Source: Ginglymostoma cirratum
Lineage: Eukaryota
DNA: 63,040 nucleotides
Assembly (NCBI GenBank): GCA_024137785.1
Contig: JAHRHZ010000263.1
Span: 29,521,648 to 29,584,687 of the forward strand
Direction: 5' to 3'
Below are positions 11,024 through 51,520 of the stretch, piece after piece; within the stretch, counting starts at the first letter, position 1, and each line of letters begins with the position of its first letter. The translations under genes were made by a program, and so were the position numbers. The notes below the pieces were generated by a model. That model worked only from the letters and a program-made list of their open reading frames with translations, was not told where the DNA came from and did no database searches.

Positions 11024-11179
<156 letters not shown>

Positions 11180-16345: not shown

Positions 16346-16745
16346 NNNNNNNNNNNNNNNNNNNNNNNNNNNNNNNNNNNNNNNNNNNNNNNNNNNNNNN
16401 NNNNNNNNNNNNNNNNNNNNNNNNNNNNNNNNNNNNNNNNNNNNNNNNNNNNNNNNNNNNNNNNNNNNNNNNNNNNNNNNNNNNNNNNNNNNNNNNNNNN
16501 NNNNNNNNNNNNNNNNNNNNNNNNNNNNNNNNNNNNNNNNNNNNNNNNNNNNNNNNNNNNNNNNNNNNNNNNNNNNNNNNNNNNNNNNNNNNNNNNNNNN
16601 NNNNNNNNNNNNNNNNNNNNNNNNNNNNNNNNNNNNNNNNNNNNNNNNNNNNNNNNNNNNNNNNNNNNNNNNNNNNNNNNNNNNNNNNNNNNNNNNNNNN
16701 NNNNNNNNNNNNNNNNNNNNNNNNNNNNNNNNNNNNNNNNNNNNN
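16346..16745. other. Assembly gap (400 N), preceded by a Penelope-like terminus at about 16264-16345
   Basis: Run of N. The left flank gagatagtaggaactgccaatgctggagtc...ggccaagcagcatca matches the start of the element at 34651. Confidence 0.95.
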
Positions 16746-22950: not shown

Positions 22951-23387
22951 CTGGCAGTAATCACTAAATACTGTAGTCACAACTTTTGAAAAAGGTTTGA
23001 ATTTCGCATTTGGAATCTATTTCCGAGGAGCTTGCGCTTTCACATTTGCAAAATCTTTCACTATGAGTTTTACCTCTTTATGTCTATTCTTCTGCCTAAG
23101 TCACCCCAGGTCTCAAAAGTTCACCTGTAAAGTTGAAGCCCATGAAAGACTGTTTTTTTTTAAAAAAAACAATGCCCGAATTGATTGCCTTAGTTAGCGC
23201 TCCCGGCCTGTCACCATGGCTCCTGAAAGGGAGAAGAGTATATTGGGAATTGTTGCTCATTTCACGGTATCCCGGGTTGAGATAAGAAATGAACGGAAGA
23301 GCGGGAGTAGGGGACTTCACTTGTATCGGATATGGTCCCAAGTTGAAAAGCAGCATGATCCCGGGTAAAGCCCCATTGCCCTCATAC

Positions 23388-23461
23388 CGCATTTGCCTCT
23401 CCTGCTCCAACTCACTGCTCAGCTGCTCGAGCTCCGAGGACTCTCCGCGCACCTCCTCCAT
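23388..23461 (-). CDS. CCDC169: CCDC169 coding exon 1 (74 nt): MEEVRGESSELEQLSSELEQERQM(R)
   Basis: ATG at 23461-23459 in a strong context (aggATGG) and a CG|gtatga donor. Phase 2 fits exon 2. It lies in a CpG-rich patch, and the position downstream of SPART matches human synteny. Confidence 0.8.
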
Positions 23462-23598
23462 CCTCGCTCCCAGCCCCGCTTGTTACAGTCGTCACCGTGG
23501 CAACGCAATGTCATGTGACTCGCACCCGGAAGTCCCTTGTCTCCTCTCTGCGTGAAGTGTACGGCCCCGCGAAGTCTGTCATTCTGTGAGGAGTTGCT
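23462..23598. promoter_or_regulatory. Compact CpG-rich bidirectional promoter (CCDC169 and the novel plus-strand gene)
   Basis: RFX X-box GTCACCGTGGCAAC at 23491-23504, M-box/CLEAR-like GTCATGTGAC at 23510-23519 and ETS/GABPA CCGGAAGT at 23526-23533. Locally high CpG in a CpG-poor window, with divergent ATGs 137 bp apart. Confidence 0.75.
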
Positions 23599-23662
23599 AT
23601 GGATAGAAGGGAGCTATTGTCTGATTCTGCCAAAGAGTATGACAGGATGAAAGCCAATATAG
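23599..23662 (+). CDS. Putative novel coiled-coil microprotein gene, exon 1 (64 nt): MDRRELLSDSAKEYDRMKANI
   Basis: Strong Kozak context GCTATGG, open frame to a strong AG|GTAAGA donor (phase 1), directly downstream of the promoter motifs. Confidence 0.65.
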
Positions 23663-23926
23663 GTAAGAATGCATATTAAGGGTTACAGATATACTATGGT
23701 TTATTTGTAATTTCTCCTATTCTCAAGAATATAATATCGACTGACTTTTACTACAGACACTGCTGATGTTTTTAAACTTTTGCTTTCAGAGTTTCAATAT
23801 TTCATTTTCCTCTAAATTATTCAATGTGAGGGACATAAACTGGACAAGATATTCTAAATGAGACCTAATCAAGAATGATTTTGTGCTGTGTTGAATTTAT
23901 CTAAGAAATACATTCAAATTTTCAGG

Positions 23927-25161
23927 GATAACAAGGTGTAGAGCTGGATGAACACAACAGGCCAAGCAGCATCAGAGGAGCAGGAAAGCTGATGTTTCGG
24001 ACCTAGAAACCTTCTTCAGAAATAGTGGAGGGGAAGGGGGTTCTGAAATAAATAGGGAGAGGGGGAGGCGGATAGAAGATGGATAAAGGAGAAGATAGGT
24101 GGAGAGGAGACAGACAGGTCAAAGAGGCGGGGCTGGAGCCAGTAAAGGTGAGTGTAGGTGGGGAGTTGGGCGGGGGTGGAAATAGGTCAGTACAGGGAGG
24201 ATGGACAGGTCAAGGGGGTGGGATGAGGCTGGTAAGTAGGAGATAGGGGTGGGGCTTGAGGTGGGAGGAAGGACAGGTTAGGGAGGTGGGGACAAGCTGG
24301 GCTGGTTTTGGGATGCGGTCGGGGGAGGGGAGATTTTGAAGCTTATGAAATCCACATTGATGCCATTGGGCTGCAGGGTTCCCAATTGAAATATGAGGTG
24401 CTGTTCCTGTAACCTTCGGGTGGCATCTTCGGGGCACTGCAGGAGGCCTAGGATGGCATGTTGTCTAAGGAGTGGGAGGGGGAGTTGAAATGGTTCACGA
24501 TTGGGAGGTGCAGTTGTTTATTGCGAACTGAGCATAGGTGTTCCACAAAGTGGTCCCCAAGGACATTTTTCAAGGACTGCAACTCTTTCCCCCCACCACA
24601 GTGGTTGAAAGCGCCTTCGCCCACGTCTTCCGCATTTCCCGCAACTCATCCCTCACACCCCCTCCCCGCAATGACAACCAAAACAGGATCCCCCTCGTCC
24701 TCACATACCACCCCACCCAACCTCCAGATCCACCGCATCATCCTCCGGCAATTCCGCCATCTACAAACTGACACCACTACCAAAGACATATTTCCCTCCC
24801 CACCCTTATCTGCTTATTGGAAGGACCACTCTCTCCGTGACTCCCTCATCCACTCCACACTCCCCACCAGTCCCACCACTTCTCCCTGCAACCTCAAGAA
24901 GTGCCACACTTCCGCCCTCACCCCCATCCCAGGCCCCAGGAAGACCTTCCAGATCAAACAGATGTTCACCTGCACATCTGCTAATGTGGTATGCTGTATC
25001 CGCTGTTCCCGATGTGGCCTCCTCTACATTGGGGAAACCAAGCGGAGGCTTGGGGCCCGCTGTCAGCTTTCCTGCTCCTCTGATGCTGCTGGGCCTGCTG
25101 TGTTCATCCAGCTCTACACCTTGTTACCTCAGATTATCCAGCATCTGCAGTTCCTACTATC
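23927..25161 (+). mobile_element. Penelope-like retroelement (Neptune-like), truncated, with an inverted 5' arm
   Basis: ORF 24458-25165 encodes a Cys-rich linker (PCNLKKC) and the GIY-YIG motif VVCCIRCSRCGLLYIGETKRRLG. Positions 23927 to about 24555 are an inverted copy of the element's 3' end. Confidence 0.85.
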
Positions 25162-26289
25162 TTAAATTTTAAAACCTAGTTCTGCACTTACCCACAAGAG
25201 GAAACATTCTTTCCATATCCACCTTATCAAGACCATTCAGGATCTTGCACATTTTAATCAAATCACCCTTCGTTCTTCTGAACTCTAGTGAAAACCAGCC
25301 CAACAATGTCCTCGTAAGAAGAGGCATGACCAATGTTCCATCTATTTCTTTCCTGCTGAGCCCGGAGCTATGCATCAGCATGCCAATCTATGTGCGTGGG
25401 GCTTCTCAGCCTAGCTGTGCAACTAAGAAGTGACATTGACCATGGTGTCCTTTTGGGTTGGGGTGTTCTGAGAGGTACGTGCTTTGAGTGTTGCCAATCG
25501 ATCTGCTACAAGTCATTGTCGTCACTTGTAAATCTCACTGTCCTGATGTCTGAAGCTGCCATTAAACCATCACAACTATTAACTCGACTAATTCAGCCTT
25601 TTCTCATAATACAGAGGTGCATTTATACAGGAAAAATTATTTTACTTTCATGTGAGGATACAAATTTATGCAAAAGGTGTCTTTCTCTTTCCTGTTCGCA
25701 CGTTTTATTTTCATTCATTTTTACACACTGCTATGCTTAAAATTGGACAGCTGAGGCTACAACTGGGAAATCTTGAATCCATTTTGAGAAATAAACAAGT
25801 TCCGCAATGCTGACTTTTGTACAGGTTCCATATCTCTCGATCTGTATAGTCTTGCTCACCGTCAGAGGACAAGTTTTCCTTGCTCACTTGAATAAAGCGT
25901 AATCCAGGCCTTTTTATTGGCTTCTCTTGCTATTGCGAGGTGCTGGATTGTCTGATTGGCAGGTCTGCACCAGAGGAGGATATTAGTTCCAATTTAGCCA
26001 AACAGTTCATCAATACAATTCTCTCATTGCGAACAATTGTCCCACCAGGGACTGCGTCATCTAATCTTTGACAAGTTGCATTTGTGCTTATTATGTATAA
26101 ATAAGAATGTAATTCCAGATGAAGCATGATCTGATTTTGCAAAAAAGCAAATGAATATTAAAATTAATTACTTAATCAGTGTGCAAAGTTAACAAAGGAC
26201 AAAAATGTTAATTTTTATATTTAGGAATGAGAACTAAAAGTTATCTTAAAACAGCAGCATCCGGTTCATCATGGGAACAAACTAAGCTG

Positions 26290-28590
26290 CCATATTTTAG
26301 ATTCATGAGGTGCTGTTGACCATCAGTAGCAGCAGAATCGTATTCCAATACAACCTGCAATCTCATGACCAGGCATATCCTTCGACTGCACTGTTACCAG
26401 GGGATCAAGCCAAGAGATCAATCTGATTCAATGAAGAATGCAGGAGAGCATCCCAGGAGCAGCAGCAGGCATACCTAAAAGCAGGCACTCTACAAACAGG
26501 ATTACCCGCGTGCCAAACATTAGAAGCAGCAAGTGATAGACAGAGCTAAGCTCTGCAGTCCTGCCACATCAAGATATGAAGAGTGGTGGACAGTTACACA
26601 ATTTGCTGAAGGAGGAAGCTCCACAAATATCCCCATCCACAGTGAATACCCCAGCTCATCAATGCAAAAAATAAGGTTGAAGCATTCACAAAAAGCTTCA
26701 GCCAGAAGTGCCGAGTAATGATCCGTCTTGGCCTTTTCCAGAGGTTCCCAGCATCATAAATGCTGGTCTGCAGTCGATACAATTCACTCCATGTGATATC
26801 AAGAAATGGTTGGAGACACTGAATACTGCAAAGGCCCTGACAACATTCCAGAAATAGTTCTCAAGACTTTTATGCTCCAGAAACTGCCCCTTCCCTAGCC
26901 AAGCTGTTCCAGTACAGCTGCAATTTTGACATTTATCTGACAATGTGGAAAATTGCCCAGGTATGTCCAGTGTACACCAAAGCAGGAATGATCTATTCCA
27001 GCCAATTATTGCTTCGTCAGTCTACTCTTGATATTCAGTAAAGTGATTGGAAGGTGTCATCAACAGTGCTTTCAGGTAGCACCTGCTCAGTGACGCCCAA
27101 TTTGACTTCCGCCAGAGCACCCTGGCTCCTGACCTCATTCCAGCCTTGGTTCAAACATGGACAAAAGAGCTGAATTCCAGGGGTGATGTGAGAGTGACAG
27201 CCCTTGACATCAAGGACTCATTTTGCCAAATGTAGCATCAAGGAACCCTAGCAAAAGTGTAATGCATGGGAATCGGGGAGAATCCACTCTACTGGTTGTA
27301 GTCATGCCTGGTACACAGGAAGATAGTTGTGGTTGTTGGAGGTCAGTCATCTCAGCTCCAGAACATCTCTGCAGGAGTTCTTCATGGTGGTGTCCTAGGT
27401 TAAACCATCTTCAGTTGCTTCGTCAATGACTTTCCCTCCATCATAAGGTCAAAGGTGGGGATGTTCACTGACGATTGCAAAATGTTCATTATTCACAACT
27501 CCTCAGAAACTGAAGCAATCATGCCCAAATGCAGAAAGACTTGGACAATATCGTTTGCACCACACAAATGACAGGCAATAATCATCTCTAATAAAAGATA
27601 ATCTAACCAATGCCCTTTGATATTCAATAATGTTATCATTACTGAATCCGTCAATTATCAATGTCCTGGGGATTACTATTGACAGAAACAACTGGACTTG
27701 CCATATAAACACAGTGGCTATAACAGCAGGTCAGAGGCTGGGAATATTGCAGTGAGTATTGTCCCTCCTAACTCCCCAGTGCGTGTCCACTATCTACAAG
27801 GTACAAGTTAGGAGTGTGTTGGAATACTTCTCACCTTTCTGGATAAGTGCAACTCTGACAACACTCGAAGCTTGAGACTGTCCAGGAGAAATCAGTGCAC
27901 CTGATTGGCATCACACCCACAAATATCCACACCGTCTACCATTAATGATTAGTAGCAGCTGTGTACACTACCTACAAGATACACTGCAGAAATTCATGAA
28001 AGATCCTTAGACAGCACCTTCCAAACTCATAACTGCTTTTATCTTTTTATTCATTCATGGCATGCGGGCGTCACTGGCCAGGCAGCATTTGTTGCCTATC
28101 CCTAATTGCCTAGAGGGCAGTTAAGAGTCAACTATATTGCTGTGGGTCTGGAGTCACATGTAGGCCAGACTGGGTATGGATGGCAGTTTCCTTCCCTAAA
28201 GGACATTAGTGAACTAGAAGTGTTCTTCCTGACAATCCACAATGGATTCAAATTCCACCAACTGCTGTGGCTGGATTCAAACCCAGGTCCCCAGAACATT
28301 ACCTGGGTCTCTGGACTAACAGTCCAGCGATAATACCACTAGGCCATCGCCTCCCACTGGAAGCACATGAGCAGCAGATATATGGGAATAACAGCACTTG
28401 CAAGTTTCCATCCAACATATCACTTTTCCTTCAGTGTCATTTATCAAAATCCTAGGATTCCCTCTCTACAGCATGTGGACAGCCAAGGTGTAGGAAGGCA
28501 GTTCAGCACCATCTTCTGAAGAGCAACCAGGGACCAGCAATAATATGCTGATCCAGCCAGCAATACCCATGTCCCACGAGTGAATAAAAA
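26290..28590 (+). mobile_element. Degenerate CR1/L2-group LINE (RT region to 3' tail) with a nested insert at about 28045-28355
   Basis: RT motif remnants (gccaattattgcttcgtcagtctactc; gcccttgacatcaag, ALDIK; gggatgttcactgacgattgc, MFTDDC) and an A-rich tail at about 28582-28592. Confidence 0.75.
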
Positions 28591-29504
28591 AATGTCCAAA
28601 CTGTTGGGTCTTTCTTGAATATGAATACTGTCAGTGTTCAAAGGGGAAACAACATTTATGAAGAAACTTTGTACTTTTTTGATTGAATGGGACTTGTGTG
28701 TTCCCTTAAGCAATACCTAGTTCGTGGAGATAACCACATTGTAATATTTAATTCTCATTAGTCTTCAGCTGATCATCCTGATGATGAATAACTGTTCCCT
28801 TTGCTCATTAAAATTACTGAATAGGGTATTCAGTATCAGGTACTCCTTCCTCCTGCAAAGAAGTCAGACTTTGTTCTGCTCGTGAACCATTGGTGGAAAT
28901 TCAATGCAGCGAATATTGAGACCTTGGTTTAAATGAGCGATTTTAATGGAACATTGTTGCTCCGTTATTGAATTCCAAGATTCAATTAAGTGATAGAATC
29001 TGCAGTATTGGATGTGGGCCTTTTTATGATCTGCATGGAATTATATTGCAGGTACTTGACAAATAATGAATTTCATCCTGCATTTACTGTCCAAAGTATT
29101 AGCTGACTATATGCTTGGTTCGGTCATTATATTGTTCTACATACTAATTTAGCGTAGTATAATATACCCCTTCACTAAGCTGTTCTTGCTATAAATAAAT
29201 CTTATCTGGCACCTGGGTGGATATACAGTAAGTAGCAAAGATGTCAAATAACATTTTTCATCCTGAGAAGAGAGTCTCATAGAATCATTACATGAGACAT
29301 AATTAATATAAGGATATCTCACAGTCTCTCTCTCTCTCTCTCATGTTTGTAATTAATATAACACTAGAGTATTATATAAAAATGAGGCCGTGGTGTAAGA
29401 CATTAAAATGGATATGAATTATTCCCATATGCCCTGACCCAGTTTATCCCCTTCTTAACTTCATCAGAAAAGACTGCAGTCTTATTTCCCTACTTGATAC
29501 ATAA

Positions 29505-30650
29505 ACAAAGGAATGAGGAACAAAAGTAGGCCATTTGGTCCTTTGAGCCTATTCTGCTATTAAGTATTATCATGGCTGATCGTCCAACTGAGTAACCATG
29601 TTCCCACTTTTGCCCCATACCCTTTGATCCCTTTAGCCCTAAGAAACAGCTTTCCAGTGGCATTTCAATCGAATCACCACTCTCTTTTGGGGGAGAAATT
29701 TCTCCTCCTGTCAGACATAATGGGCCTACCCCATTATCCTTAGACTGTGACCCCAGTTCTGGACTCCCGCTCATTAGGAACATCCTTCCTGTGTTTACCT
29801 TGTCTAGTCCTTATAGAATTTTTGTAGATTTCTCTGAGACTCTTTCCCTTCACCCCACCCACCCCCCCAATCTTCTAAACTCCAGAGAATATTGGACCAT
29901 AAGACCATAAAATTTTGGATCAGAATTAGCCCATTCAGCCCATCGATTCTACTCTGCCATTCGATAATGACTGATATGTTTCTCAAACTCCATTCTCCTG
30001 TCTGCTCCCTGTAATTCTTGATCCCTTTACCATTCAAGAATCTATCTGTCACTGTCTTCAATATATTCAATGACTAGTCACCACAGAAGGCTGTGGAGCC
30101 AAGATTCACCAACCTCTGGCTGAAGAAATTCCTCCTCATCTCAGTTCTGAAATGCCAACCCTGAGGCAGTGCCCTCTTGTTCTAGTCTCTCCTACTAGCG
30201 GGAACATCTTCTCCGCGTCCACTCGATTCACACCTTCCAGTATTCTGTAAGTTTCAATCAGATCTCTCCTCATCCTTCTAAATTCCATCGAGAACAGATC
30301 CATAGTCCTTAACCACTCCTCATATGATGAGCCCTTCATTTCCGGGATGATTCTTGTGAACCTCCTCTGGACCCTCCAAGGCTTGCACGTCATTCTTTTG
30401 ATACAGGCCCCAAAACTGCTCTCAATATTCCAAATGCAGTCTGACCAGAGCCTTATACTGCCTCAGCTATACGTCCCTGTTCTAGTATTCTATGTCTCTC
30501 ATAATAAATGCTAATATTGCATTTGCCTTCCTAACTGCTAACTGAACCTGCATGTTAACCTAAACAGAATCCTGAATGACAAGCTTTGGAAGTCTGAAGC
30601 ATAAAAATTTTATTCTGTTTAGAAAATAGCCTATGCCTCTATTCCCGTAA
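29505..30650 (-). mobile_element. Stacked CR1-like LINE 3' fragments
   Basis: ORF 30136-30393 reads RVQRRFTRIIPEMKGSSYEEWL...RRDLIETYRIL...TRTRGH, the CR1 ORF2 C-terminus. Confidence 0.8.
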
Positions 30651-31419
30651 ATTTCTTTCCTCATACTGAAATTGGACAAGAATGACTTTCTTTGTAGATG
30701 TTGGTTTGAGATGCCTGTGAAGTGTATGGATTTTGTTTTTTTGCTGTTTGTTGTACAATCTTTTTCTAGACTAATATAAAGAATTTCGAGGCAGACATAG
30801 AGGTTGACAAAACTTTAATGGAGTCAACTTCTTACTGCAGCTACACGAACTTTTTCACTGCACTTTAAAGAACTAAGATGGATGCTCCATTATGTGATAT
30901 TGTCTTAACCAGTCCAGTCTCTCTTCTTATGTTAGCCCTGCCATCTCAGAAAAAAGCCTGATTAACTTTCCTGCATGCCCTTCACAGCCAGAACATTCCT
31001 CATCATCAGATAAGGAGATCAAAGTGCATACAGTCTACCCTCACGTGTGGTGTCACATTAATAAGAATGTATGAAATTTAAGCTATACAGGTAAATGGTC
31101 TTTGAGGCTGCTCTACCATCTAGTACCATCATGGGTTATCTTCCAATTCAATGGCATAGGAGATTAATGAATAATATTAACGATTTATACCAATTTTTAA
31201 AATTTCAGATTCCTGTCTTTGCATTTATAATGAAAACACTGATGTAAAGTTGTTCTGTAATTACATCGTCTTCTCAGTTGAGATGCTCTAACGCCACTTC
31301 TCCTGAAGATTACACTTGGGTTAACCTTCCCTTGTGTAATACAATGGAATAATAAATGTTACAGCTTTAAGAAACTAAAATGGCATTATGGTCAATATTA
31401 TATGTTGTTTCTATTGCAG

Positions 31420-31517
31420 AAAGACTTACTGAAGAATCTTCTCAGTTGGCCATGTATCAGAAAAAAATGGTGGAACACAATACAGTGCTTAAAAATCTCA
31501 GCCAGAATTTCAATCAG
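31420..31517 (+). CDS. Putative novel microprotein gene, exon 2 (98 nt): (E)RLTEESSQLAMYQKKMVEHNTVLKNLSQNFNQ
   Basis: tgttgtttctattgcag| acceptor and CAG|gtaacc donor. Open in the phase 1 to 0 frame required by exons 1 and 3, and located in non-repetitive sequence. Confidence 0.65.
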
Positions 31518-32159
31518 GTAACCCAAAACTGCAAATAGGAAGGCTACCCAAACCACACTATTTGAGGAACAAAGTGTTAGCCACAAGTTATACTGATCTA
31601 CTGCAGACCCTCTTTGCTCACACATTATTACCTCAACAACTTGCCTTGTACAACTAATGGGCATAATGCATGAGTATTATGCTTCTATTCCTGACCACAG
31701 ACATTTTGGAGGTATTTATAAAATAAGCTATAAATCTAGCTCAGCTATCAAGTTTCAACACACTATTTCAAACACTTTGGGAATTTATTTTTGAATGCTC
31801 ACATTGCTGACAGATAAAACTAGTACTTTGAACAGACGTGTATATTTCTGTCTGTCTTATTGGTCACCAATTTTTACTACTAGTGTGACTGACCTGACCT
31901 TTGTTATTCCTCAGCTGGATCTAAGGGGATCTCAGTTGGACGACTTCTCTATTTAAATACTTGTGCTGTGATACTATCTGTACTTAATATGACAACTCTT
32001 CCCCTCCTTTTCTTCCCTATTCCACATGAAATTTTTATATCTAAAAGCATTTATCAACTTTGAACCTGCTCGAGACGAGATACTTGCTATTTTATGATTT
32101 TCTAATTTTCTAATCCAGTAACTTACTCTTTTTCACCTGATAATTAACTTTTTCGTATG

Positions 32160-34650
32160 CATTTTATTAAGTAGGGTAAGGACGACTTGGCTGACTGGAC
32201 AGCATTTACTACCCATTCCCCATTTTTGACCTTTAGAAGATGATAGTAAGCTGCCATTTTGAACCACTGCAGTCCATTTAGTGTTGGTACACCTACATTG
32301 CTGTAAGGGAGGGAGTTCCATAATTTTAACCCAGCGTCACTGAAGTTGGGATGGTGAATTGCTTGGAGGTGGTCTTACAGGTGATGGTGTTCCCATGTAT
32401 CTGCTGCCCTCGAGGTGGTAGTAGTGGTTGTGGGTTTGGAAAATGTAGTGCGAAGTGCCTTGGTGAATTCTTGCAGTGCATCTTGTAAATGGTATGCACT
32501 AATATACATTGTGTCACTGGAGACAATGTTTGCAGAGTCAGCAGGTGAATTACTCACAACAGGATTCCCAACCTCTGACCTGCTCTGTAGTCAAAGTATT
32601 TATGTGGCTGATCCAGTTCAGTTCCTGGTCAGTGGTAACCCTCAGGATGTTAGTGAGGGAGTTTGTGATGTTAATGCCCGTTGAAGGTCAGGGGGTAACT
32701 GTTAGATTGCCTAACAGTTGGAGATCGCCATTGCCTGGCACTTGTGTGGTGCAAATGTTACTTTCCACCTGTCTGCACCAAGCCTGGACATCATCCAGGT
32801 CTTGTTGCTTTAGGACATGGGCTGCTTCAGTATGTAAGGAATTGTGAACGGTGTCGAACATTGTACGATCATCCGCGAACATCCCCACTTCTGACCTTAT
32901 GACAGAGGGAAGGTTGCTGATGAAGCAGCTGAAGACGTTTCGACCTAGGACACTGAGGGACTCCTGCAGAGATATCCCGAAGCTGAGACAAGTGACCCCT
33001 GACAATCACAACCACCTTCCTATGTGCCAACCAGTGGAGAGTTTTACCACCAATTCCTCATGATTCTAGTTTTGCTAGGTTTTCTCAATGACAAACTTAA
33101 TCAATTGTGGCCGTAATGTATGGTATGGTACCTGCTGTCTCGTCCCCTCTAGAGTTCAGCTCTTTTGTTCATGTTTGAACCAAAACTATAGTTGTGTTTA
33201 AAATAAGTAGCCCTGGGATGGGTATTAATAGTAGGTTGTTGCTGAGCAAGTGCTGCTTGGTAATACAATTGATGACGTCCATCATATGTTACTGAATATT
33301 AGGAGTAAATTAACCAAGCTGTATCTGGCTGGGTTGGAACTATCCTTTTTTTCATGTACTGGTCATACTTGGGCAATTTTGCCAAATAGGTGTGAGTGTT
33401 GTAGCTGTGCTGTAATAGCTTGGGGGTGGTGGTGCATAGCAAGTTCTGGAACATGTCTATTATTTTGACCCAGCAACAGTGAAGGAATGGTGATATATTT
33501 CCAAGTCAGGATGGTGAGGAGCTTGGAGGGGAACTTTCAGGTGGTGGTGTTCCTTTTGTATCTGCTGCCCTTGTCCTTCTACATCAAAGTGATTGTGGGA
33601 CCTCTGGAAGAGGCTGAGATGGATCATCCCAGACAGTTCTGGCTGAAGATTGGTGCAACTGCTCCAGTCTTATCTACCACTTACGTGCTGATCTCCCCCA
33701 TCAGTAAGGATGGAGATATTTGTGGAGCCCTCTCCTCTAATGAGTTGTTTAATTGACTATAATGGTTCAAAATTGAATATGGTAGAAATGCAGAGCTTAG
33801 ATCTGATCTGTTCATTTTGGAATCATTTAGTTCTGACTATCACTTGTGCTTATGCTGTTTGGCATGCAGGTAGCCCTGTTTTGCAGCTTCACCAGGTTGA
33901 TGCCTCATCTTTGCATATGCCTGGTTTTATTCCTGAAATGCCCTCCGCAACTCTCTGAACCAGGGTTGATCTCCTGTTTTAATAATCAGGCTAAAATGGG
34001 TGACATGCTGGACCTTGGGTACATTGTGTTGGAGTAAAATTCTGCTTCTACTGATGGCCAACATTGTCTCATTTAAAGCTCAGTCCTGAGATGCTAGGTC
34101 ATTTCAAAATCTGTCCCATTCTGCAGAGTAGTAGTTCCACAGGACATGATGCCAAGTATCCTTGATATGAAGACTGGATTTCAATTCTACAAGGACTGTG
34201 CAGTGACCTCTCTCTGACCAATACTGTCATAGATAGATACCTCTGCAACAGGCAGAGTGGTGAGGATGTTTCTGCACTACCTGATGTAGACCTAATCGAG
34301 CTGCTATATGCTTTAAGATTCAACCAGCTCAATCAGCATTAGTCAGCCAGTCTTGGTGATGGATATTGAAGTCGCCAATCCAAAGTACAAATTTGTGTCT
34401 TTACCACCCACTGTGCTTCTTCCAAATGGTGTTCAACATGGATAAGTACTGCTTCATCAGCCAAGGGCTGGTGGTAAATGGTAATCAGCAGGAGGTTTTC
34501 TCTTCTAGGTTTTGAACTGATGCCATGAGACATCATAGGATCCAGAGTCAATGTTGAGGAATGCAAGACAACTTCCTCCTGACAGTACACTACTGTGCCA
34601 CGTCTGGGTCTATCGTGTTGGTGACGATGCCTAGGACATGGTCTGTTATG
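32160..34650 (-). mobile_element. Degenerate CR1/L2-group LINE (same family as 26290-28590)
   Basis: ORF 32688-33005 contains FSCFISNLPSVIRSEVGMFADD...LQQDLDDVQAWC-like RT sequence. Endonuclease-like remnant NLLLITIYHQP lies in ORF 34339-34731. Confidence 0.75.
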
Positions 34651-36547
34651 GAGATAGTAGGAACTGTAGATGCTGGAGAATCTGAGATAACAAGGTGTAG
34701 AGCTGGATGAACACAGCAGGCCAAGCAGCATCAGAGGAGCAGGAAGGCTGATGTTTCGGGCCTAGACCCTTCTTCAGAAATGGGGGAGGGGGAGGGGGTT
34801 CTGAAATAAATAGGGAGAGAGGGGGAGGCGGATAGAAGATGGATAGAGGAGAAGATAGGTGGAGAGGAGACAGACAGGTCAAAGAGGCAGGGATGGAGCC
34901 AGTAAAGGTGACTGTAGGTGGGGAGTTGGGGAGGAGCTACGTCAGTCCAGGGAGGACAGACAGATCTAGGGGGTGGGATGAAGTTACTGGTAGGAGATGG
35001 ATGTGGGGCTTGAGGTGGGACGAGGGGATAGGTGGGAGGAAGGACAGGTTAGGGAGGCGGGGACGAGCTAGGCTGGTTTTGGGATGCGGTAGGGGGAGGG
35101 GAGATTTTGAAGCTTGTGAAGTCCACATTGATACCATTGGGCCGCAGGGTTCCCGACGAGGAGCTCGAACAGTTCATTCACTTCACCAATACCTTCCTCC
35201 CCAACCCTAAGTTCACCTGGACCATCTCTAATACCTCTCTCTCCTTCCTGGACCTCTCTGTCTCCATCTCTGGCAACCACCCAGAAACCGATATCCATTT
35301 CAAGCCCACCAACTCCCACGGCTACCTGGAATACACCTCCTCCCACCCACCTTCCTGCAAAAATGCCATCCCCATTCCCAATTCCTTCGCCTCCGCCGCC
35401 TCTGCTCCCAGGATGAGGCATTCCACTCCCGTACATCTCAGATGTCCTCATTGTTCAAGGACCGCAACTTCCCCCCATCAGTGGTCGAAAACGCCCTTGA
35501 CCGTGTCTCCTGCATTTCCCGCAACTCATCCCTCACACCCCCTCCCCGCAATAACAACCAAAAAAGAATCCCCCTCATCCTCACGTACCACCCCACCACC
35601 CTCCGGATCCGATGCATCATCCTCCGACACTTCCGCCATCTGCAATCCGACCCCACCACCAAAGACATTTTTCCCTCCTCACCCTTATCTGCTTTCCAGA
35701 GGGACCACTCTCTCCGTGACTCCCTTGTCCGCTCCACACTCCCCTCCAGCCCCACCACACCCGGCACTTTTCCTTGCAATTGAAGGAAGTGCTACACCTG
35801 CCCCTACACCTCACCCCCATCCCTGGCCCCAAGAAGACTTTCCAAATAACATCTGCTAATGTGTTATACTGCATCTGTTGTTCCCGTTGTGGCCTCTTCT
35901 ACACCGGGGAAACCAAGCGGAAGCCTGGGGACTGCTTTGCAGAACACCTACGCTCGGTTCGCACTAAACAACTGCACCTCCCAGTCGCGAACCATTTCAA
36001 CTCCCCCTCCCATTCCTCAGACGACATGTCCTTCCTGGGCCTCCTGCAGTGCCACAACGATGCCACCCGAAGGTTGCAGGAACAGCAACTCATATTCTGC
36101 TTGGGAACCCTGCAGCCCAATGGTATCAATGTGGACTTCACAAGCTTCAAAATCCCCCCTCCCCCTACCACATCCCAAAACCAGCCCAGCTCATTCCCAC
36201 CTCCCTAACCTGTCCTTCCTCCTATCTCATGCCCCACTCCCATCTCCTACCTACTAACCTCCTCCCACCCCCTTGACCTGTCCATCCTCCCTGGACTGAC
36301 CTATCTAACTCCCCACCTACACTCACCTTTATTGGCTCCATCCCTGCCTCTTTGACCTGTCTGTCTCCTCTCTACCTATCTTCTCCTCTATCTATCTTTT
36401 ATCTGCGTCCCTCTCTCTCCCTATTTATTTCAGAACCCCATCCTCCTCCCCCATTTCTGAGGAAGGGTCTAGGCCCGAAACATCAGCCTTCCTGCTCCTC
36501 TGCTGCTTGGCCTGCTGTGTTCATCCAGCTCTACACCTTGTTATCTC
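34651..36547 (+). mobile_element. Penelope-like retroelement (Neptune-like): inverted 5' arm, RT thumb, GIY-YIG and pseudo-LTR, with TSD
   Basis: EELEQFIHFTNTF..FTWTISNTSLSFLDL..KPTNSHGYLEYTSSHP (PLE RT C-terminus), PGTFPCN linker, and CSRCGLFYTGETKR..FAEH..VANHFNS..EQQLIFCLGTLQPNGIN (GIY-YIG). Frameshifted. Flanked by catggtctgttatg (34637-34650) and catggcctgttatg (36547-36560). Confidence 0.9.
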
Positions 36548-37619
36548 ATGGCCTGTTATGATTGTCAGGCTGTTGCAGTTTCTGGTGCCCTTGATCAGTG
36601 TCCAGTTGTGTATCCAATTTTCTGTCTTTCTTTATACAACCAGTTAAGAGTCAACCACATTGCTTACGGTTTGATGCATTTAAACCAAAGCAGGTAAGAT
36701 CAGCAAATTTTCTTCCCTCAGAGGCATTAGTAAATCAAATGGGTTTTTACAACAATCCACAATGGTTCCATTGACATCCTACGACTTTTAATTCCAGATT
36801 GTGAATTAAAACAAGCATTCAACCTTCTGCTATGGGTGGGATTCGAACACCGGAGATCACCTGCATCTCTGGTGACAATCCCACTATTCCATCACCTTTT
36901 ATAATTCCGTATTAAATACTACAGGGATTGTCGATAACTTTATACAACATACTGCTTTGATCACAGTTTATTGATGGTCCTATCCACTGCGTCTTTGAGC
37001 GTAGCAATTCAACTTGACCAACTTTTTTGATGTTTGCTCAGATGAAAAAAAGTGGCTTATAAATTTTTCACGAGACTGATATATTTCAAAAAAGCTGTCG
37101 GTGTGAGCTTGTTATTTTTTTGTATATTAAAACTTGAAATAGACTTTTATAAATGGGAATACATTTGTTCACCTATACAATTACTTCACTTCACTTCAGT
37201 AATCTTGCTCGTTTTTGTAAAAGACTCACATTCTAATTTAGCTTCTATATTATTATTTTTTCCCATTCTGGACATTAAACACAGCCTAATATTTAATATG
37301 CCTCCCTGATTATTTCATTACTCAAGATTAGATCTAGCAAAAACATTACTTCTGCCACCATTTCATCATATTGCTTCAGGAAGAATTGTACACCTTTTAG
37401 GAATTCCATTCCTTTTCTTAGTTTACTCCTTAATCATGAGAACGATACCTTATGTTCATTATTCCTACCCCTTCCTGAATTGTCAAACTTCTTCCCCTCT
37501 GGAATAGGCACAATGGACCGTGTGATCCCGGTCAGTGTTGTATCTGTGAATCAATTTCCTTTCTGCAGTCAGGTGAGGTGGGGGGGTCTGTACTACAGCC
37601 TTAAGGATTACTCAATTGT

Positions 37620-37862
37620 GTTGGCACTATTGCCAGAGCTAGAAAGTTGTGAATTCAAGCTCCACTTTGAGGAATTATGTGCAAAAATCCACGCTGATAG
37701 TCTAGTGTGGTACTATGGAGGACAAGAATGTTCCAGGTGCCAACTATTTAATTAAGACTCCAACTACCCTCTCACAGATGTAATAGATTCAAAAACAATT
37801 GCAAAGAGCAGCAGGAATGTCTACCATTGTGTTAGCTTATTTTTGCCTCTCAATCAACATCT
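37620..37862 (+). mobile_element. Ancient DeuSINE-like (SacSINE1/AmnSINE1-type) SINE remnant
   Basis: Diverged match to the recalled Deu-domain order: aaatccacgctga..gtggtact..ggag..ggtgcc..ccctctca..gatgtaa..gat..aagagcag..tttgcctctcaatcaacatc. Confidence 0.55.
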
Positions 37863-38348
37863 CTCTTGGCCTTTTTTGTAGTTGATGCTACTTGATCACT
37901 TTTCAGCATCCAGCATCCTATTTAGATTTGGTGGATGCTTTTAAAGCTGGAGGTCCTTTCCGCCATTTAATCCTTCCCATTTATCCAGGCTGGGGACCAG
38001 CACTAATGCATGCTGGCTTGTCTGTGCCAGTGGCTGGGTTCTTCATTGCCAACAAGTGACAATTGAGCCCAGACTTCCACTGCATTGGTACATATGTATG
38101 GTGAAGTATTGCAATGGTTTGCCACAGTTTTCTGTGGCATAGCTGATCAAGAGACTTGAACCTGAAGCTTCTGGCTCAGAGATTGCGATGCTACCATAGT
38201 ATCAGATGATCTTGGCTCTCCATCTGAAAAGCTGAAAAACATTAATGTAATATGGAATATCTTACTCTGTGCATCTTTACATGAATATGATCTTGTACAT
38301 GCAGTGCAGCTTAACAACTAAAGCAAACTAAGCTTTTATCTCTTTTAG

Positions 38349-38411
38349 GTACAGTTGAGACTGGAACGAGTAGCAGCTGTGAAGCCTGGTATCACAGGAC
38401 TGAACCAGTAG
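38349..38411 (+). CDS. Putative novel microprotein gene, terminal exon 3 CDS (63 nt): VQLRLERVAAVKPGITGLNQ*
   Basis: Branch-like ctaag plus a cttttatctcttttag| acceptor, phase 0. TAG at 38409-38411, with AATAAA about 160 nt downstream. Confidence 0.6.
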   Translation, partial: VQLRLERVAAVKPGITGLNQ

Positions 38412-38572
38412 TTTGTGGGGGAAAAACATGCCTGTAATGCAATGAAAGCCAATATTTCCAACCTATTCAAGATTGTAGTATTAACTTGAGCTTTCATGAT
38501 AATAGTTATGTTTGCTCAATGAGTGAATTTTCCTCCCAATTTGTGTAACTCAATTGTTTGTTTTCTCCATGA

Positions 38573-38578
38573 AATAAA
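38573..38578 (+). terminator. Polyadenylation signal AATAAA of the putative novel gene
   Basis: Canonical hexamer after an AT-rich 3' UTR-like stretch, followed by T/GT-rich sequence (tgtatttttcacatttgtatattt). Confidence 0.55.
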
Positions 38579-38859
38579 GACTTGAATGTATTTACACTGA
38601 TTTAAATGTATTTTTCACATTTGTATATTTAAGGCAACTTCAGCATATACACATTTCATAAATATTCCAATACTTTCATGGGATGTAGATGTCACTAGCA
38701 AGGATAGCGTTTGTGCCTATCCTTTTGGACATGTGGGAGAGGTAAAAAAGGGAAGAAATATTAATGGTTACCACTTGAAGCAAGATAAAAGTACAGATTG
38801 GCTAATCCAATATGTTGTATGCAACTGAGGTATGTTGAATATTCTCTTCACCTGATCCC

Positions 38860-41412: not shown

Positions 41413-41602
41413 TCAATTTTTGTCTTGCTTCTCTGGTTTTTCTTGTAATCTATACTCAACTAGAATAGCATTTCCAGTTTCTTTCGCAGTGCGTCGTGCC
41501 ACAGCCTTGATACCCAAATGATCAATGTTAAAAGCTGTAACACCAACGTTGATGGCAGAGGTCACAGCATTGTCTGTAGCTTTCCCAGCAGCAGAGCCAT
41601 AC
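41413..41602 (-). CDS. SPART: SPART last coding exon (190 nt): (K)YGSAAGKATDNAVTSAINVGVTAFNIDHLGIKAVARRTAKETGNAILVEYRLQEKPEKQDKN*
   Basis: ataaag| acceptor, phase 2, TGA at 41415-41413. Matches the spartin senescence-domain C-terminus (recalled human YGYNAGEATHHAVDSAVNVGVTAYNI). Confidence 0.93.
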
Positions 41603-43916
41603 CTTTATCAGAAAGGAGCATTTCGACAATTTCAAGAAGCAAAGCAACCAGAAAAAATGCCAGATTTTTTGCCATGCTAACATGCTGCGCACTTTACACA
41701 ATTAATTTTATCCACATTTTAAGAAGGTTCTCTTTCCCACATGCCAGTCCTTTTCTGGAACTTGATCACAGATAAATTTGAATACATCTGCACATTACAA
41801 GTCAATTAACATAATCACAATACAAGAAACAAATTTGACTATTAAAATATACAGAATTAGCACAGTTGGCTAGAGAGAAGAGATAAGGATCAGGTTTTGA
41901 TTAGAGGCTGGGACCCTCTAAGTGAGAGCTGCAAGAACAAAAACAAGAAACAGGAGAAGGACATTCATTCCTCTAATCCTGCCTTGCCATTCCATAAGAT
42001 GTCCGGCCTCAATTACCATTGTGCCAGCTCCTTACAACCCTCAACTCCAATATTTCAAAGTTTATCTACTTTCTCCTTAAATACTTTCACTAATGTGAAG
42101 GGTCTGTTTCTGTGTTATGTGAATCTATGACTATCTAGCTTCCACACTCTCTGGGGTAGAGAATTCCAGACATTTGTTATCCTCAAGAAATTCTTTGTAC
42201 CAGTGAGGCAACTCTTGAGGCCTATATACCACCATGATTTTTTTCTCTCTGCTATTTCTCATCTCCAGTTAGATTATTCTCTTATCACAATTTATTACAC
42301 CTATATCACCACTCACCACTCACCACTGCAATGAAACATTACATATCAACAATGGTATCCCATCTTTCCTTTATTCTCTATTCCTCCACAATATCGAATA
42401 TCCTTGAATGTTGAGTACTAATCCTGATCACCATGCAACCACATGTCTGTAATAGCTGTAAAGTCACGTTCATTTATTTCTAAGTGTCATCAACTCATTT
42501 TCTGTTTACAAACACTATATGCATCCAATTAGAGTCTTAAACTTTGATTTTTTTGGCATTAACAACAATTTTGGTTTTAATTTCTCCTGCACTTTCCTGC
42601 TTATATTTTCTACCCCTTCCTGTCACACTTTGATTTGATTGCAGGGTAGTGAAGACACACTTATGCCCTCTCATCTATTCTTTAAAAACAAAAATTCAAA
42701 AGGGTTCCCCTTGAGTCCTCCCCACCAGACCCCTCAGTAATCAGTTTGAAGCCCCATTTATAACACTGCTTACACAATTAACTAGAATACTGTCCCAACA
42801 TAGTTCAACTGAAGCCCATCCCAATGGAACAGCTCATTCCCTAGTATGGGTGCCAGTGCCCCATGAATTGAATCCTATTTCTCCCACACCAGTCTTTGAG
42901 CCAGGCATTTATTTCTCTAATCTTATTTACCCTACATCAACTGCATGTGGCTCAGGTATTAGTCTAGAGATTATGTCCTTTGTGGTTCTGCATTTTAACC
43001 CAGAGTAGTTTGTAATTCCTCAATAGGACCTCCTCCTTAGTCTTGGTACCTATGTGGACATGAGAACTGGATCCTTTCCCTCCCACTCCAAGTTCCTCAT
43101 CAGCTTGAACCTTGGTGGCAACAGACTTCAGTTCTCTGCCTTTGCCACGCAGAACATAAGGGAACACTGCAAATTATGACATGTCAAGGAGAAACAGTCT
43201 CTTCCCTTGACAAGAAATAGCAACATTGGCATCACCATGTTCTTCTGGCTGAGATTAAGTAGCACAGCACGGGGATGAATTCTAGGATTATTCTGAAATA
43301 TAAATCACACATCAGTGTGAGCCATCATCCACAATGAAAAAATCTTTGTGCTGGTGAGATTTTTCAGTTGACAATAATCCGATCTGGAGCAATAATACTA
43401 AAGCAGTCGATTAACCATTTAAGATATTTGATTAACCCTCCTCTAAACCTAAGGAAGTGATATACCAATGATGGTAAAAGGGACCAAATTTTAGAAATAC
43501 ATTAAATACCAGTTTATATCATTGGCAACATAGATTAGGTTAATGGTAAACAGGGATTCTATTTTTCATTAAATTTGACAAATTATTAGATTACCTCCTA
43601 TGTGGGTAGACTAATTCCCCATAGAATACAGGGTCGGAGGAAAGAACTAACAATCAGTAGGACACTGGAGAAAATAAGTCACTCAGCATAAGCACACCTA
43701 AATGATTCACAACAAAAAAATCGTAATGTATTGTCAGAAAGGGGAAAGCTGATTTAAAGCAATTAATATCAAGATGCTTGAAGCAATTTAATTTGTTTTT
43801 GAAATGTAACTTGTGTATCTGTAACAAAGTATGAAGCACAGTTATGAACAAAATAATGTACTGTTTTTGTAAATTGCATTTCTAATTAATTCTGTTTTAA
43901 ATAAACAAGTACTTAC

Positions 43917-50940: not shown

Positions 50941-51135
50941 CCAAGAACTGGCTGACTTTTACAGCACCTCCTGTTGCTTGTCTTGCAACACTGAGTCCTT
51001 TTTCCACTGTTGGACTTATTTTTACAGGCTTATCTTCAGGCTGAATATGCGTTCTCAGTTTAGAAGCTCCTTTCTGGATTGCTTTACCAGTGAATTCAGC
51101 TCCCTTAACTAGACCCCAGCTCAACCAAGAGGCCC
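50941..51135 (-). CDS. SPART: SPART coding exon 4 (195 nt): (G)ASWLSWGLVKGAEFTGKAIQKGASKLRTHIQPEDKPVKISPTVEKGLSVARQATGGAVKVSQFL
   Basis: tttttcag| acceptor and |gtaagc donor, phase 1 to 1. Senescence-domain sequence (ORF 50915-51124). Confidence 0.96.
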
Positions 51136-51520
51136 CTGAAAAATAACATTAAATTGTTATAAAGTAGATTTTCCACCATTTTGCTCAGTATACACTAACA
51201 GGCGATAAATTTAATTGTGATGCTTATAGAAATAGGTAATGCGATATCCTTTATCAAACAATGTTTCCATACATATGCAGAATACAACACAAGTATCCAA
51301 GCAGCTCCTGTCTAATTCTAAGGATTAGATATTGAAACCAGCTGGAACCACAACAGCATCAAATATTTTGACACTGAGCTTATTTTATCAGTTAAGCAAT
51401 GAATTTCAGAAGAATCAGTTAGCAACTCAAAAGGTTGTGAGCACTTAAAAGTACATTCCTGATGGTGAAATTCACATCTTCGAAAAACAGTTCTCTCACT
51501 TATGTACAATAATTGCTCAC

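Follow-up and report, generated by a model that had tools for sequence, protein, structure and literature searches.

A transcribed three-exon gene divergent from CCDC169 in the shark Ginglymostoma cirratum, and a predicted family of short coiled-coil microproteins

Analysis of a 63,040-nucleotide (nt) stretch of the Ginglymostoma cirratum genome (hereafter the window; GenBank assembly GCA_024137785.1, contig JAHRHZ010000263.1, positions 29,521,648 to 29,584,687 of the forward strand) revealed a three-exon gene that encodes a predicted microprotein of 74 residues and shares its promoter region with CCDC169. The reality of this gene is practically beyond doubt, supported by its exons, splicing and transcription, by retrocopies, and by conservation in sharks, amphibians, turtles and early teleosts. 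Comparison of the predicted proteins indicates a previously undescribed family of short coiled-coil microproteins, present as database predictions and belonging to no named family. As the best overall explanation, held tentatively, we propose a non-enzymatic strand of a coiled-coil bundle in ciliated or germ cells, controlled by RFX together with CCDC169.

Joining the coding segments 23599-23662 (64 nt), 31420-31517 (98 nt) and 38349-38411 (63 nt) gives 225 nt, corresponding to 74 codons and a stop. Both introns have GT donors and pyrimidine-rich AG acceptors, with phases 1 and 0. The start codon at 23599 lies within a CpG-rich stretch and carries a G at -3 and at +4. The model put forward in an initial annotation of this DNA, with its three exons, GT-AG sites, phases and 74-residue peptide, could be reproduced in the sequence, as could the strong Kozak context, the upstream promoter (CpG-rich, 23201-23600) and the AATAAA after the stop (at 38573).

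Splicing was examined in six of the 16 listed sequencing runs, two of them raw RNA runs, X15 having been read to about a quarter. X1, X3 and X11 are contig runs presumed to be RNA, with no RNA label on record and with the intron-free form at high identity. Reads across the two junctions that the initial annotation had singled out as a check of its model were found. The junction 23662^31420 is present in two of four runs, supported by 13 raw reads (11 starts) from X15, a poly(A) RNA-seq run, and by a single X3 contig. No such read is listed among the 22 reads of X16, in which this stretch is hardly covered, and run X2 contains neither the junction nor either flanking exon. The junction 31517^38349 is seen in four of four runs, from four studies: X15 contributes 16 reads (14 starts), and each of X3, X1 and X11 supplies contig evidence. 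A single 452-nt contig of X3 joins all three exons (23541-23660, exon 2 and 38347-38580). At position 23631 of exon 1, all 11 reads of X15, and X3 as well, show a synonymous third-position difference. The 3' ends vary, with an X1 contig extending to 38629 and an X11 contig continuing beyond 38800 at high depth, past the AATAAA. Based on these contigs, there may be a form with a longer 3' untranslated region (UTR) approaching the convergent 3' end of SPART.

The spliced mRNA has also left copies in the genome. When the 4.36-Gb genome was searched, exon 2 as one query and exon 3 with the UTR as another led to the parent gene and to the same two further loci. L003, on contig C270, lacks both introns and extends into the 3' UTR, with 80% identity over 315 nt, while L002 (C21) is 5'-truncated, retains few exon 1 bases and crosses junction 2, with 80% identity over 250 nt. 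Both are disrupted by stops or frameshifts and are processed pseudogenes of the spliced mRNA. Processed pseudogenes derive from transcripts of germ-line or early embryonic cells; the two retrocopies thus indicate that the microprotein gene was transcribed there at some time. Changes between retrocopies and parent are spread evenly across codon positions (10/7/10 and 9/13/10), and are too few and too even for selection on the parent gene to be measured from them. A further match in the same genome (L018 on C39, E 3, where E is the expect value) was rejected as a paralogue: its DNA does not resemble the mRNA, and it appears to be a fragment of a long interspersed nuclear element (LINE) reverse transcriptase, going by a motif that we take to be of this type.

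A protein search at E up to 10 retained 32 of 2952 candidates. Eleven are named vertebrate proteins with 40-92% identity to the window protein, one is a Logan protein without a name (62%), and the other 20 belong to a multi-copy family that is likewise unnamed. The named proteins come from two sharks (Chiloscyllium punctatum, 92%; Scyliorhinus, 81%), three frogs (Pelobates, 52%; Ascaphus, 51%; Hymenochirus, 44%), one newt (Pleurodeles, 49%), two turtles (Platysternon, 47%; Lepidochelys, 50%) and three early-branching teleosts (Aldrovandia, 54%; Megalops, 45%; Arapaima, 40%). The relatives are 63-75 residues long, one of them with a longer N-terminus, and their core aligns without gaps. A tree of 15 rows groups the turtles (95/99), the teleosts (99/98) and the frogs (90/93). 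Protein P0003 deviates at shark junction 1 and P0031 has five extra residues at junction 2; that the deviations fall exactly at the shark intron positions suggests that the homologues have these introns in common.

The initial annotation had called the gene overlooked. It is indeed a real, spliced and conserved coding gene, but it had already been predicted in these 11 species, where ten records carry the label hypothetical or unnamed and the eleventh bears an unsupported name. The latter, TFK06199.1 (P0016, Platysternon), is called 'glucose-induced degradation protein 8-like'. GID8-type proteins are expected to have LisH/CTLH domains, and Pfam gives four weak unrelated matches for this protein and no GID8-type domain, so that we read its name as a database misnomer. 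No paper describing the gene was found in the literature, supplements excluded, and none under six homologue locus tags. In the protein collections, no homologue was found from mammals, birds, lizards or common teleosts. This absence is weak evidence of loss, since all 11 named homologues are GenBank-type predictions and none is from RefSeq, each shark protein stands alone in its 90% cluster, and the gene consists of 72 codons in three exons. Either the gene is overlooked in reference annotation or the protein collection has gaps. Gene loss in mammals is plausible, and would fit human and mouse CCDC169-SPART gaps that we assume to be a few kb or less.

The multi-copy family (P0008, P0013-P0060; ENA/Logan proteins) is more distant, with a 63-residue core at 33% identity. 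It includes many near-identical copies, at least six on 984,561-nt contigs, some of them broken. The relationship is supported by an E of 2e-4 from a two-shark profile in a search of 1.84 billion proteins, and by a 97% probability with 61 gapless columns between separate profiles; in the final protein search this family was part of the query, and its scores there are partly by construction. Its N-terminal extensions vary in frame and resemble read-through of a splice acceptor, which points to a host that is probably a eukaryote. Among viral contigs, 36 stretches were matched by pattern and none was confirmed as a relative of the distant family, and none of 39 stretches in prokaryotic genomes was confirmed with the vertebrate family profile. 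One of 222 distant-family stretches in prokaryotes (L019) has a 23-residue match with no vertebrate-profile signal; lying in a frame opposite a bacterial gene, it was read as a chance match and set aside.

The AlphaFold2 model obtained with a 15-row alignment consists of one helix spanning residues 2-64, with a mean pLDDT (predicted local distance difference test) of 88 and a pTM (predicted TM-score) of 0.52. Local confidence reaches 95-98 for residues 11-60 and is low for the tail. The heptad stripe M17-L24-L31-M38-L45-F52-L59, pointed out in the initial annotation, holds across the family: it is hydrophobic in every sequence of an 11-row alignment that has a residue at the position. A second stripe switches side mid-way, involving Y14 and I/L21 in the first half and L48, V55 and V62 in the second, and the core includes small or polar residues at A/S28, Q35, H41, N42 and Q56. 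The helix ends in a basic C-terminal motif that is nearly invariant in 10 vertebrate-type proteins. The microprotein sequence is free of catalytic motifs and of long hydrophobic stretches. On this model the product is in all probability a coiled-coil subunit. Its seam is wide and in part polar, which points to a hetero-oligomer with three or more bundled helices and not to a simple leucine zipper. A homodimer prediction for P0001, in which the alignment was not used, gave a score of 0.02 and a mark of 0.32, values that weigh neither for nor against self-pairing.

The head-to-head arrangement with CCDC169 described in the initial annotation was borne out by a DUF4600 exon at 11027-11140 on the minus strand and an ATG at 23461, and SPART was likewise recovered as the other neighbour (Table 1). 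The start codons of CCDC169 (23461, minus strand) and of the microprotein gene (23599, plus strand) are 137 nt apart, and the gap between them contains an X-box. From shuffled sequences, 0.08 such matches were expected in the whole window, and eight of 100 shuffles had a match anywhere, spacers of 0-3 having been checked. The X-box consensus is bound by RFX at ciliary genes, according to 10.1101/2022.11.11.515474. CCDC169 itself is listed among cilia genes in 10.64898/2026.10.23.761367 and is grouped with cilia genes in a table of PMC7273420. No functional study of CCDC169 was found in the literature. A 298-codon coiled-coil frame elsewhere in the genome (L008:1453-2349; genome G000, contig C51) scored 27.7 bits in the genome search, over the DUF4600 cut-off, and 25.9 bits on rescan, below it; it is a possible CCDC169-like paralogue or a chance match. 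An assembly gap of 400 N interrupts CCDC169 intron 1 at 16346-16745.

Table 1. Features of the microprotein gene and its surroundings. Coordinates refer to the window; cells are empty where no value applies.
Feature	Coordinates	Strand	Evidence and remarks
Exon 1: 5' UTR and first 64 coding bases, ATG at 23599	23541..23662	+	UTR from 23541 or further upstream; sequence, RNA reads, X3 contig
Intron 1, 7757 nt, GT-AG, phase 1	23663..31419	+	13 X15 junction reads, X3 contig; missing from retrocopy L003
Exon 2, 98 nt, core of the predicted coiled-coil helix	31420..31517	+	Sequence, RNA; as query retrieves shark proteins P0001 and P0002
Intron 2, 6831 nt, GT-AG, phase 0	31518..38348	+	16 X15 junction reads; X3, X1 and X11 contigs; missing from both retrocopies
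Exon 3 coding part, 63 nt, conserved C-terminal motif and TAG stop	38349..38411	+	Sequence, RNA, homologue alignment
3' UTR with AATAAA at 38573-38578	38412..38600	+	Sequence, RNA; about 100 nt of this UTR in both retrocopies
CpG-rich bidirectional promoter common to CCDC169 and the microprotein gene	23201..23600		GC content 50-60%, CpG observed/expected 0.63-0.88
RFX X-box consensus match	23491..23504		Sole match in the 63-kb window, inside the 137-nt gap between start codons
Weak X-box-like half site over the start codon	23593..23606	+	Best of 13 looser-pattern matches, 6.7 expected
CCDC169 putative first coding exon, divergent neighbour	23388..23461	-	ATG, GT donor, in-phase join to the DUF4600 exon; assignment inferred, without a Pfam match of its own
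CCDC169 DUF4600 exon	11027..11140	-	Pfam; further CCDC169 exons outside the window
SPART Senescence-domain exons, convergent neighbour	near 50942..51139 and 41482..41604 (last)	-	Pfam
Named homologue records			chiPu_0008385, scyTo_0008497, CAH2225067.1, GDO86_004511, FKM82_009610, NDU88_002470, TFK06199.1, CAM4371032.1, AAFF_G00128270, MATL_G00049370, GN956_G24737

These observations suggest how the microprotein might work. It is likely a single long amphipathic helix, contributing a non-enzymatic strand to a parallel coiled-coil bundle, and we infer that it would be a soluble strand with a specific partner. It may act in cells that are ciliated or belong to the germ line, with RFX controlling both the microprotein gene and CCDC169, which itself encodes a coiled-coil protein from the same promoter and would be the first candidate partner. 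The X-box and the neighbouring gene are what ties the product to cilia, centrosome or sperm, a connection that we advance with some reserve. Several points weigh against this proposal. The bin of CCDC169 exon 1 has zero depth in all four runs, including two that show the microprotein gene; the two genes are not simply co-expressed, a conclusion weakened by 3' bias and by runs unlabelled for tissue. The X-box may serve CCDC169 alone, and was searched for after the sequence had been seen. Both cilia lists are groupings made by their authors and not functional tests of CCDC169. The occurrence of the spliced form in runs of four studies would also fit broad housekeeping expression, and the partner, location and translation of the microprotein are predictions only.

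Comparisons with known families and structures were made with the same caution. A Pfam scan of 22 family members placed none of them in a family at its cut-off, and, as a control, unrelated coiled coils reached E values of 1e-5 to 4e-4 against wrong Pfam families. Profile searches of PDB sequences, which brought up 12, 32 and 41 sequences at E up to 10, gave chance-level matches only, such as histone H2B and designed helices, and no DASH chain. Foldseek returned no match in the PDB at E up to 10; a VIA-align structure search reached a best Z of 6.7, all generic coiled coils, with no DASH chain among the best 50 matches listed; and the ESM Atlas provided nothing usable for P0001 and P0012.

The product could instead be widely expressed and belong, in the manner of the BLOC-1/BORC subunits, to a helical bundle with an endolysosomal or other housekeeping task; we consider this unlikely, though it accounts for part of the evidence. 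The breadth of the spliced form over four studies agrees with it, and sub-threshold matches were obtained to Snapin_Pallidin (PF14712) in three of the 22 members (best E 0.003) and to BLOC1_2 (PF10046) in one (E 0.0095). BLOC-1/BORC subunits are likewise short parallel helices in four-helix bundles, as modelled in PMC13478489. However, the Pfam scores lie far under the cut-offs (18.4 versus 29.6 bits and 16.7 versus 33.4 bits), an unrelated bacterial coiled coil matches Snapin_Pallidin equally well (E 0.004), and the Pfam models of these subunits are longer (89-96 positions). The promoter contains motifs that we take to be of ETS and E-box type, which would speak for this reading, but each occurs as readily by chance, in 34 of 100 shuffles. 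A regulatory microprotein, in which a free helix titrates or caps a longer coiled-coil protein such as CCDC169, seems quite unlikely. HSBP1 acts on HSF1 in this way, and the length of 72-75 residues, made up only of a helix and a short tail, and the promoter common to the coiled-coil gene CCDC169 would suit such a role. Against it, CCDC169 exon 1 is not seen in the runs that show the microprotein gene, and no similarity to DUF4600 or HSBP1 is among the Pfam matches listed (best 25 of 62 families). HSBP1, HSBP1L1 and BRK1, vertebrate coiled-coil microproteins of 74-76 residues with few-exon genes, are alike in size, exon number and coiled coil, but none of their families is among the listed matches. 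That the spliced RNA could be a non-coding divergent transcript of the CCDC169 promoter, with an incidental reading frame, is hardly credible. Although coding status is judged from sequence and none of the 11 named homologues is in RefSeq, frame, length and heptads are kept in sharks, teleosts, amphibians and turtles at 40-92% identity, while the retrocopies decay, and this protein-level conservation effectively refutes a non-coding origin.

It is a long shot that the product descends remotely from Dam1/DASH subunits of the Dad4, Dam1, Dad1 or Dad3 type, with a microtubule-tracking role in some animals. The comparison with Dad4 was made through two real metagenome Dad4 sequences. DASH subunits (Dad4, PF08650; Dam1, PF08653; Dad1, PF08649; Dad3, PF08656) are also proteins of about 70 residues with one helix, and the 71-position Dad4 model is of the same length class. 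The microprotein aligns without gaps to both metagenome proteins, and in the case of the complete one the two starts coincide. In this grey-zone alignment it has EKL.E, N, F and Q positions in common with Dad4; it lacks the N-terminal motif of Dad4. The scores were reached by 25 and 171 of 2000 heptad-preserving shuffles, counts that are not significance values since Dad4 was chosen after the fact. Sub-threshold Pfam matches extend to four families (Dam1, Dad3, Duo1 and Dad1), with Dam1 in one register in four proteins (best E 2.3e-4) and Dad3 in 10 of the 22 members, mostly near-identical ones. True Dad4 falls in the same grey zone against its paralogue Dad1 (E 0.04, 0.14), and no DASH family is among the 53 Pfam families listed for five control sequences. 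Yet the best Pfam score, Dam1 with the Arapaima protein, is 21.3 versus a cut-off of 26.6 bits, the others being lower, and no Dad4 match is shown for any member. The hhalign probability is 12%, and 5% for the distant family, with a two-sequence Dad4 profile. The PDB searches and the coiled-coil control described above count against the likeness as well, and on the family profile Dad4, with 8-12 bits, is outscored by the LINE-like fragment (14.3 bits). In the shark genome, the Dad4 and Dam1 models (two of 10 families) found nothing over the cut-off in an exon-by-exon search of low power.

PMC9998035 describes eight Dam1-complex subunits as paralogues, present in Ichthyosporea and Capsaspora and undetected in Metazoa. 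It is very improbable that the present family is an animal survivor of this lineage, closest to Dad4/Dam1, and that it marks a microtubule complex of DASH type in sharks, amphibians, turtles and early teleosts, which might have been taken over for cilia or sperm. It would then have escaped surveys as a 72-codon, three-exon gene missed by annotation and apparently absent from the usual model animals, a chain of events to which we give little credence. If the likeness were true, it would overturn the published view of animals as lacking Dam1-complex subunits. The microprotein is here assigned neither to DASH nor to BLOC-1/BORC; it may function in a similar manner to such subunits, as a short helix in a parallel bundle.

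Both introns of the gene carry copies of one abundant repeat (23922-25162 and 34650-36550), which is very deep in all runs. The copies at 34650-36550 form an inverted pair, and the copy at 23922-25162 has inverted ends of about 70 nt. Its fragments presumably belong to a Penelope-type GIY-YIG element; a Pfam scan of the repeat gave no match at E 0.01.

Taken together, the gene adds an unnamed protein family kept since at least the split of sharks and bony fish, together with a more distant branch, whose possible tandem expansion in some non-vertebrate would be worth tracing. It provides an example of how short multi-exon genes slip through annotation, and frogs offer an immediate system for testing it. 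Should mammals and birds prove to have lost the gene but kept its promoter partner CCDC169, it would represent a part of a ciliary or germ-cell complex that has disappeared there, and would offer a handle on CCDC169.

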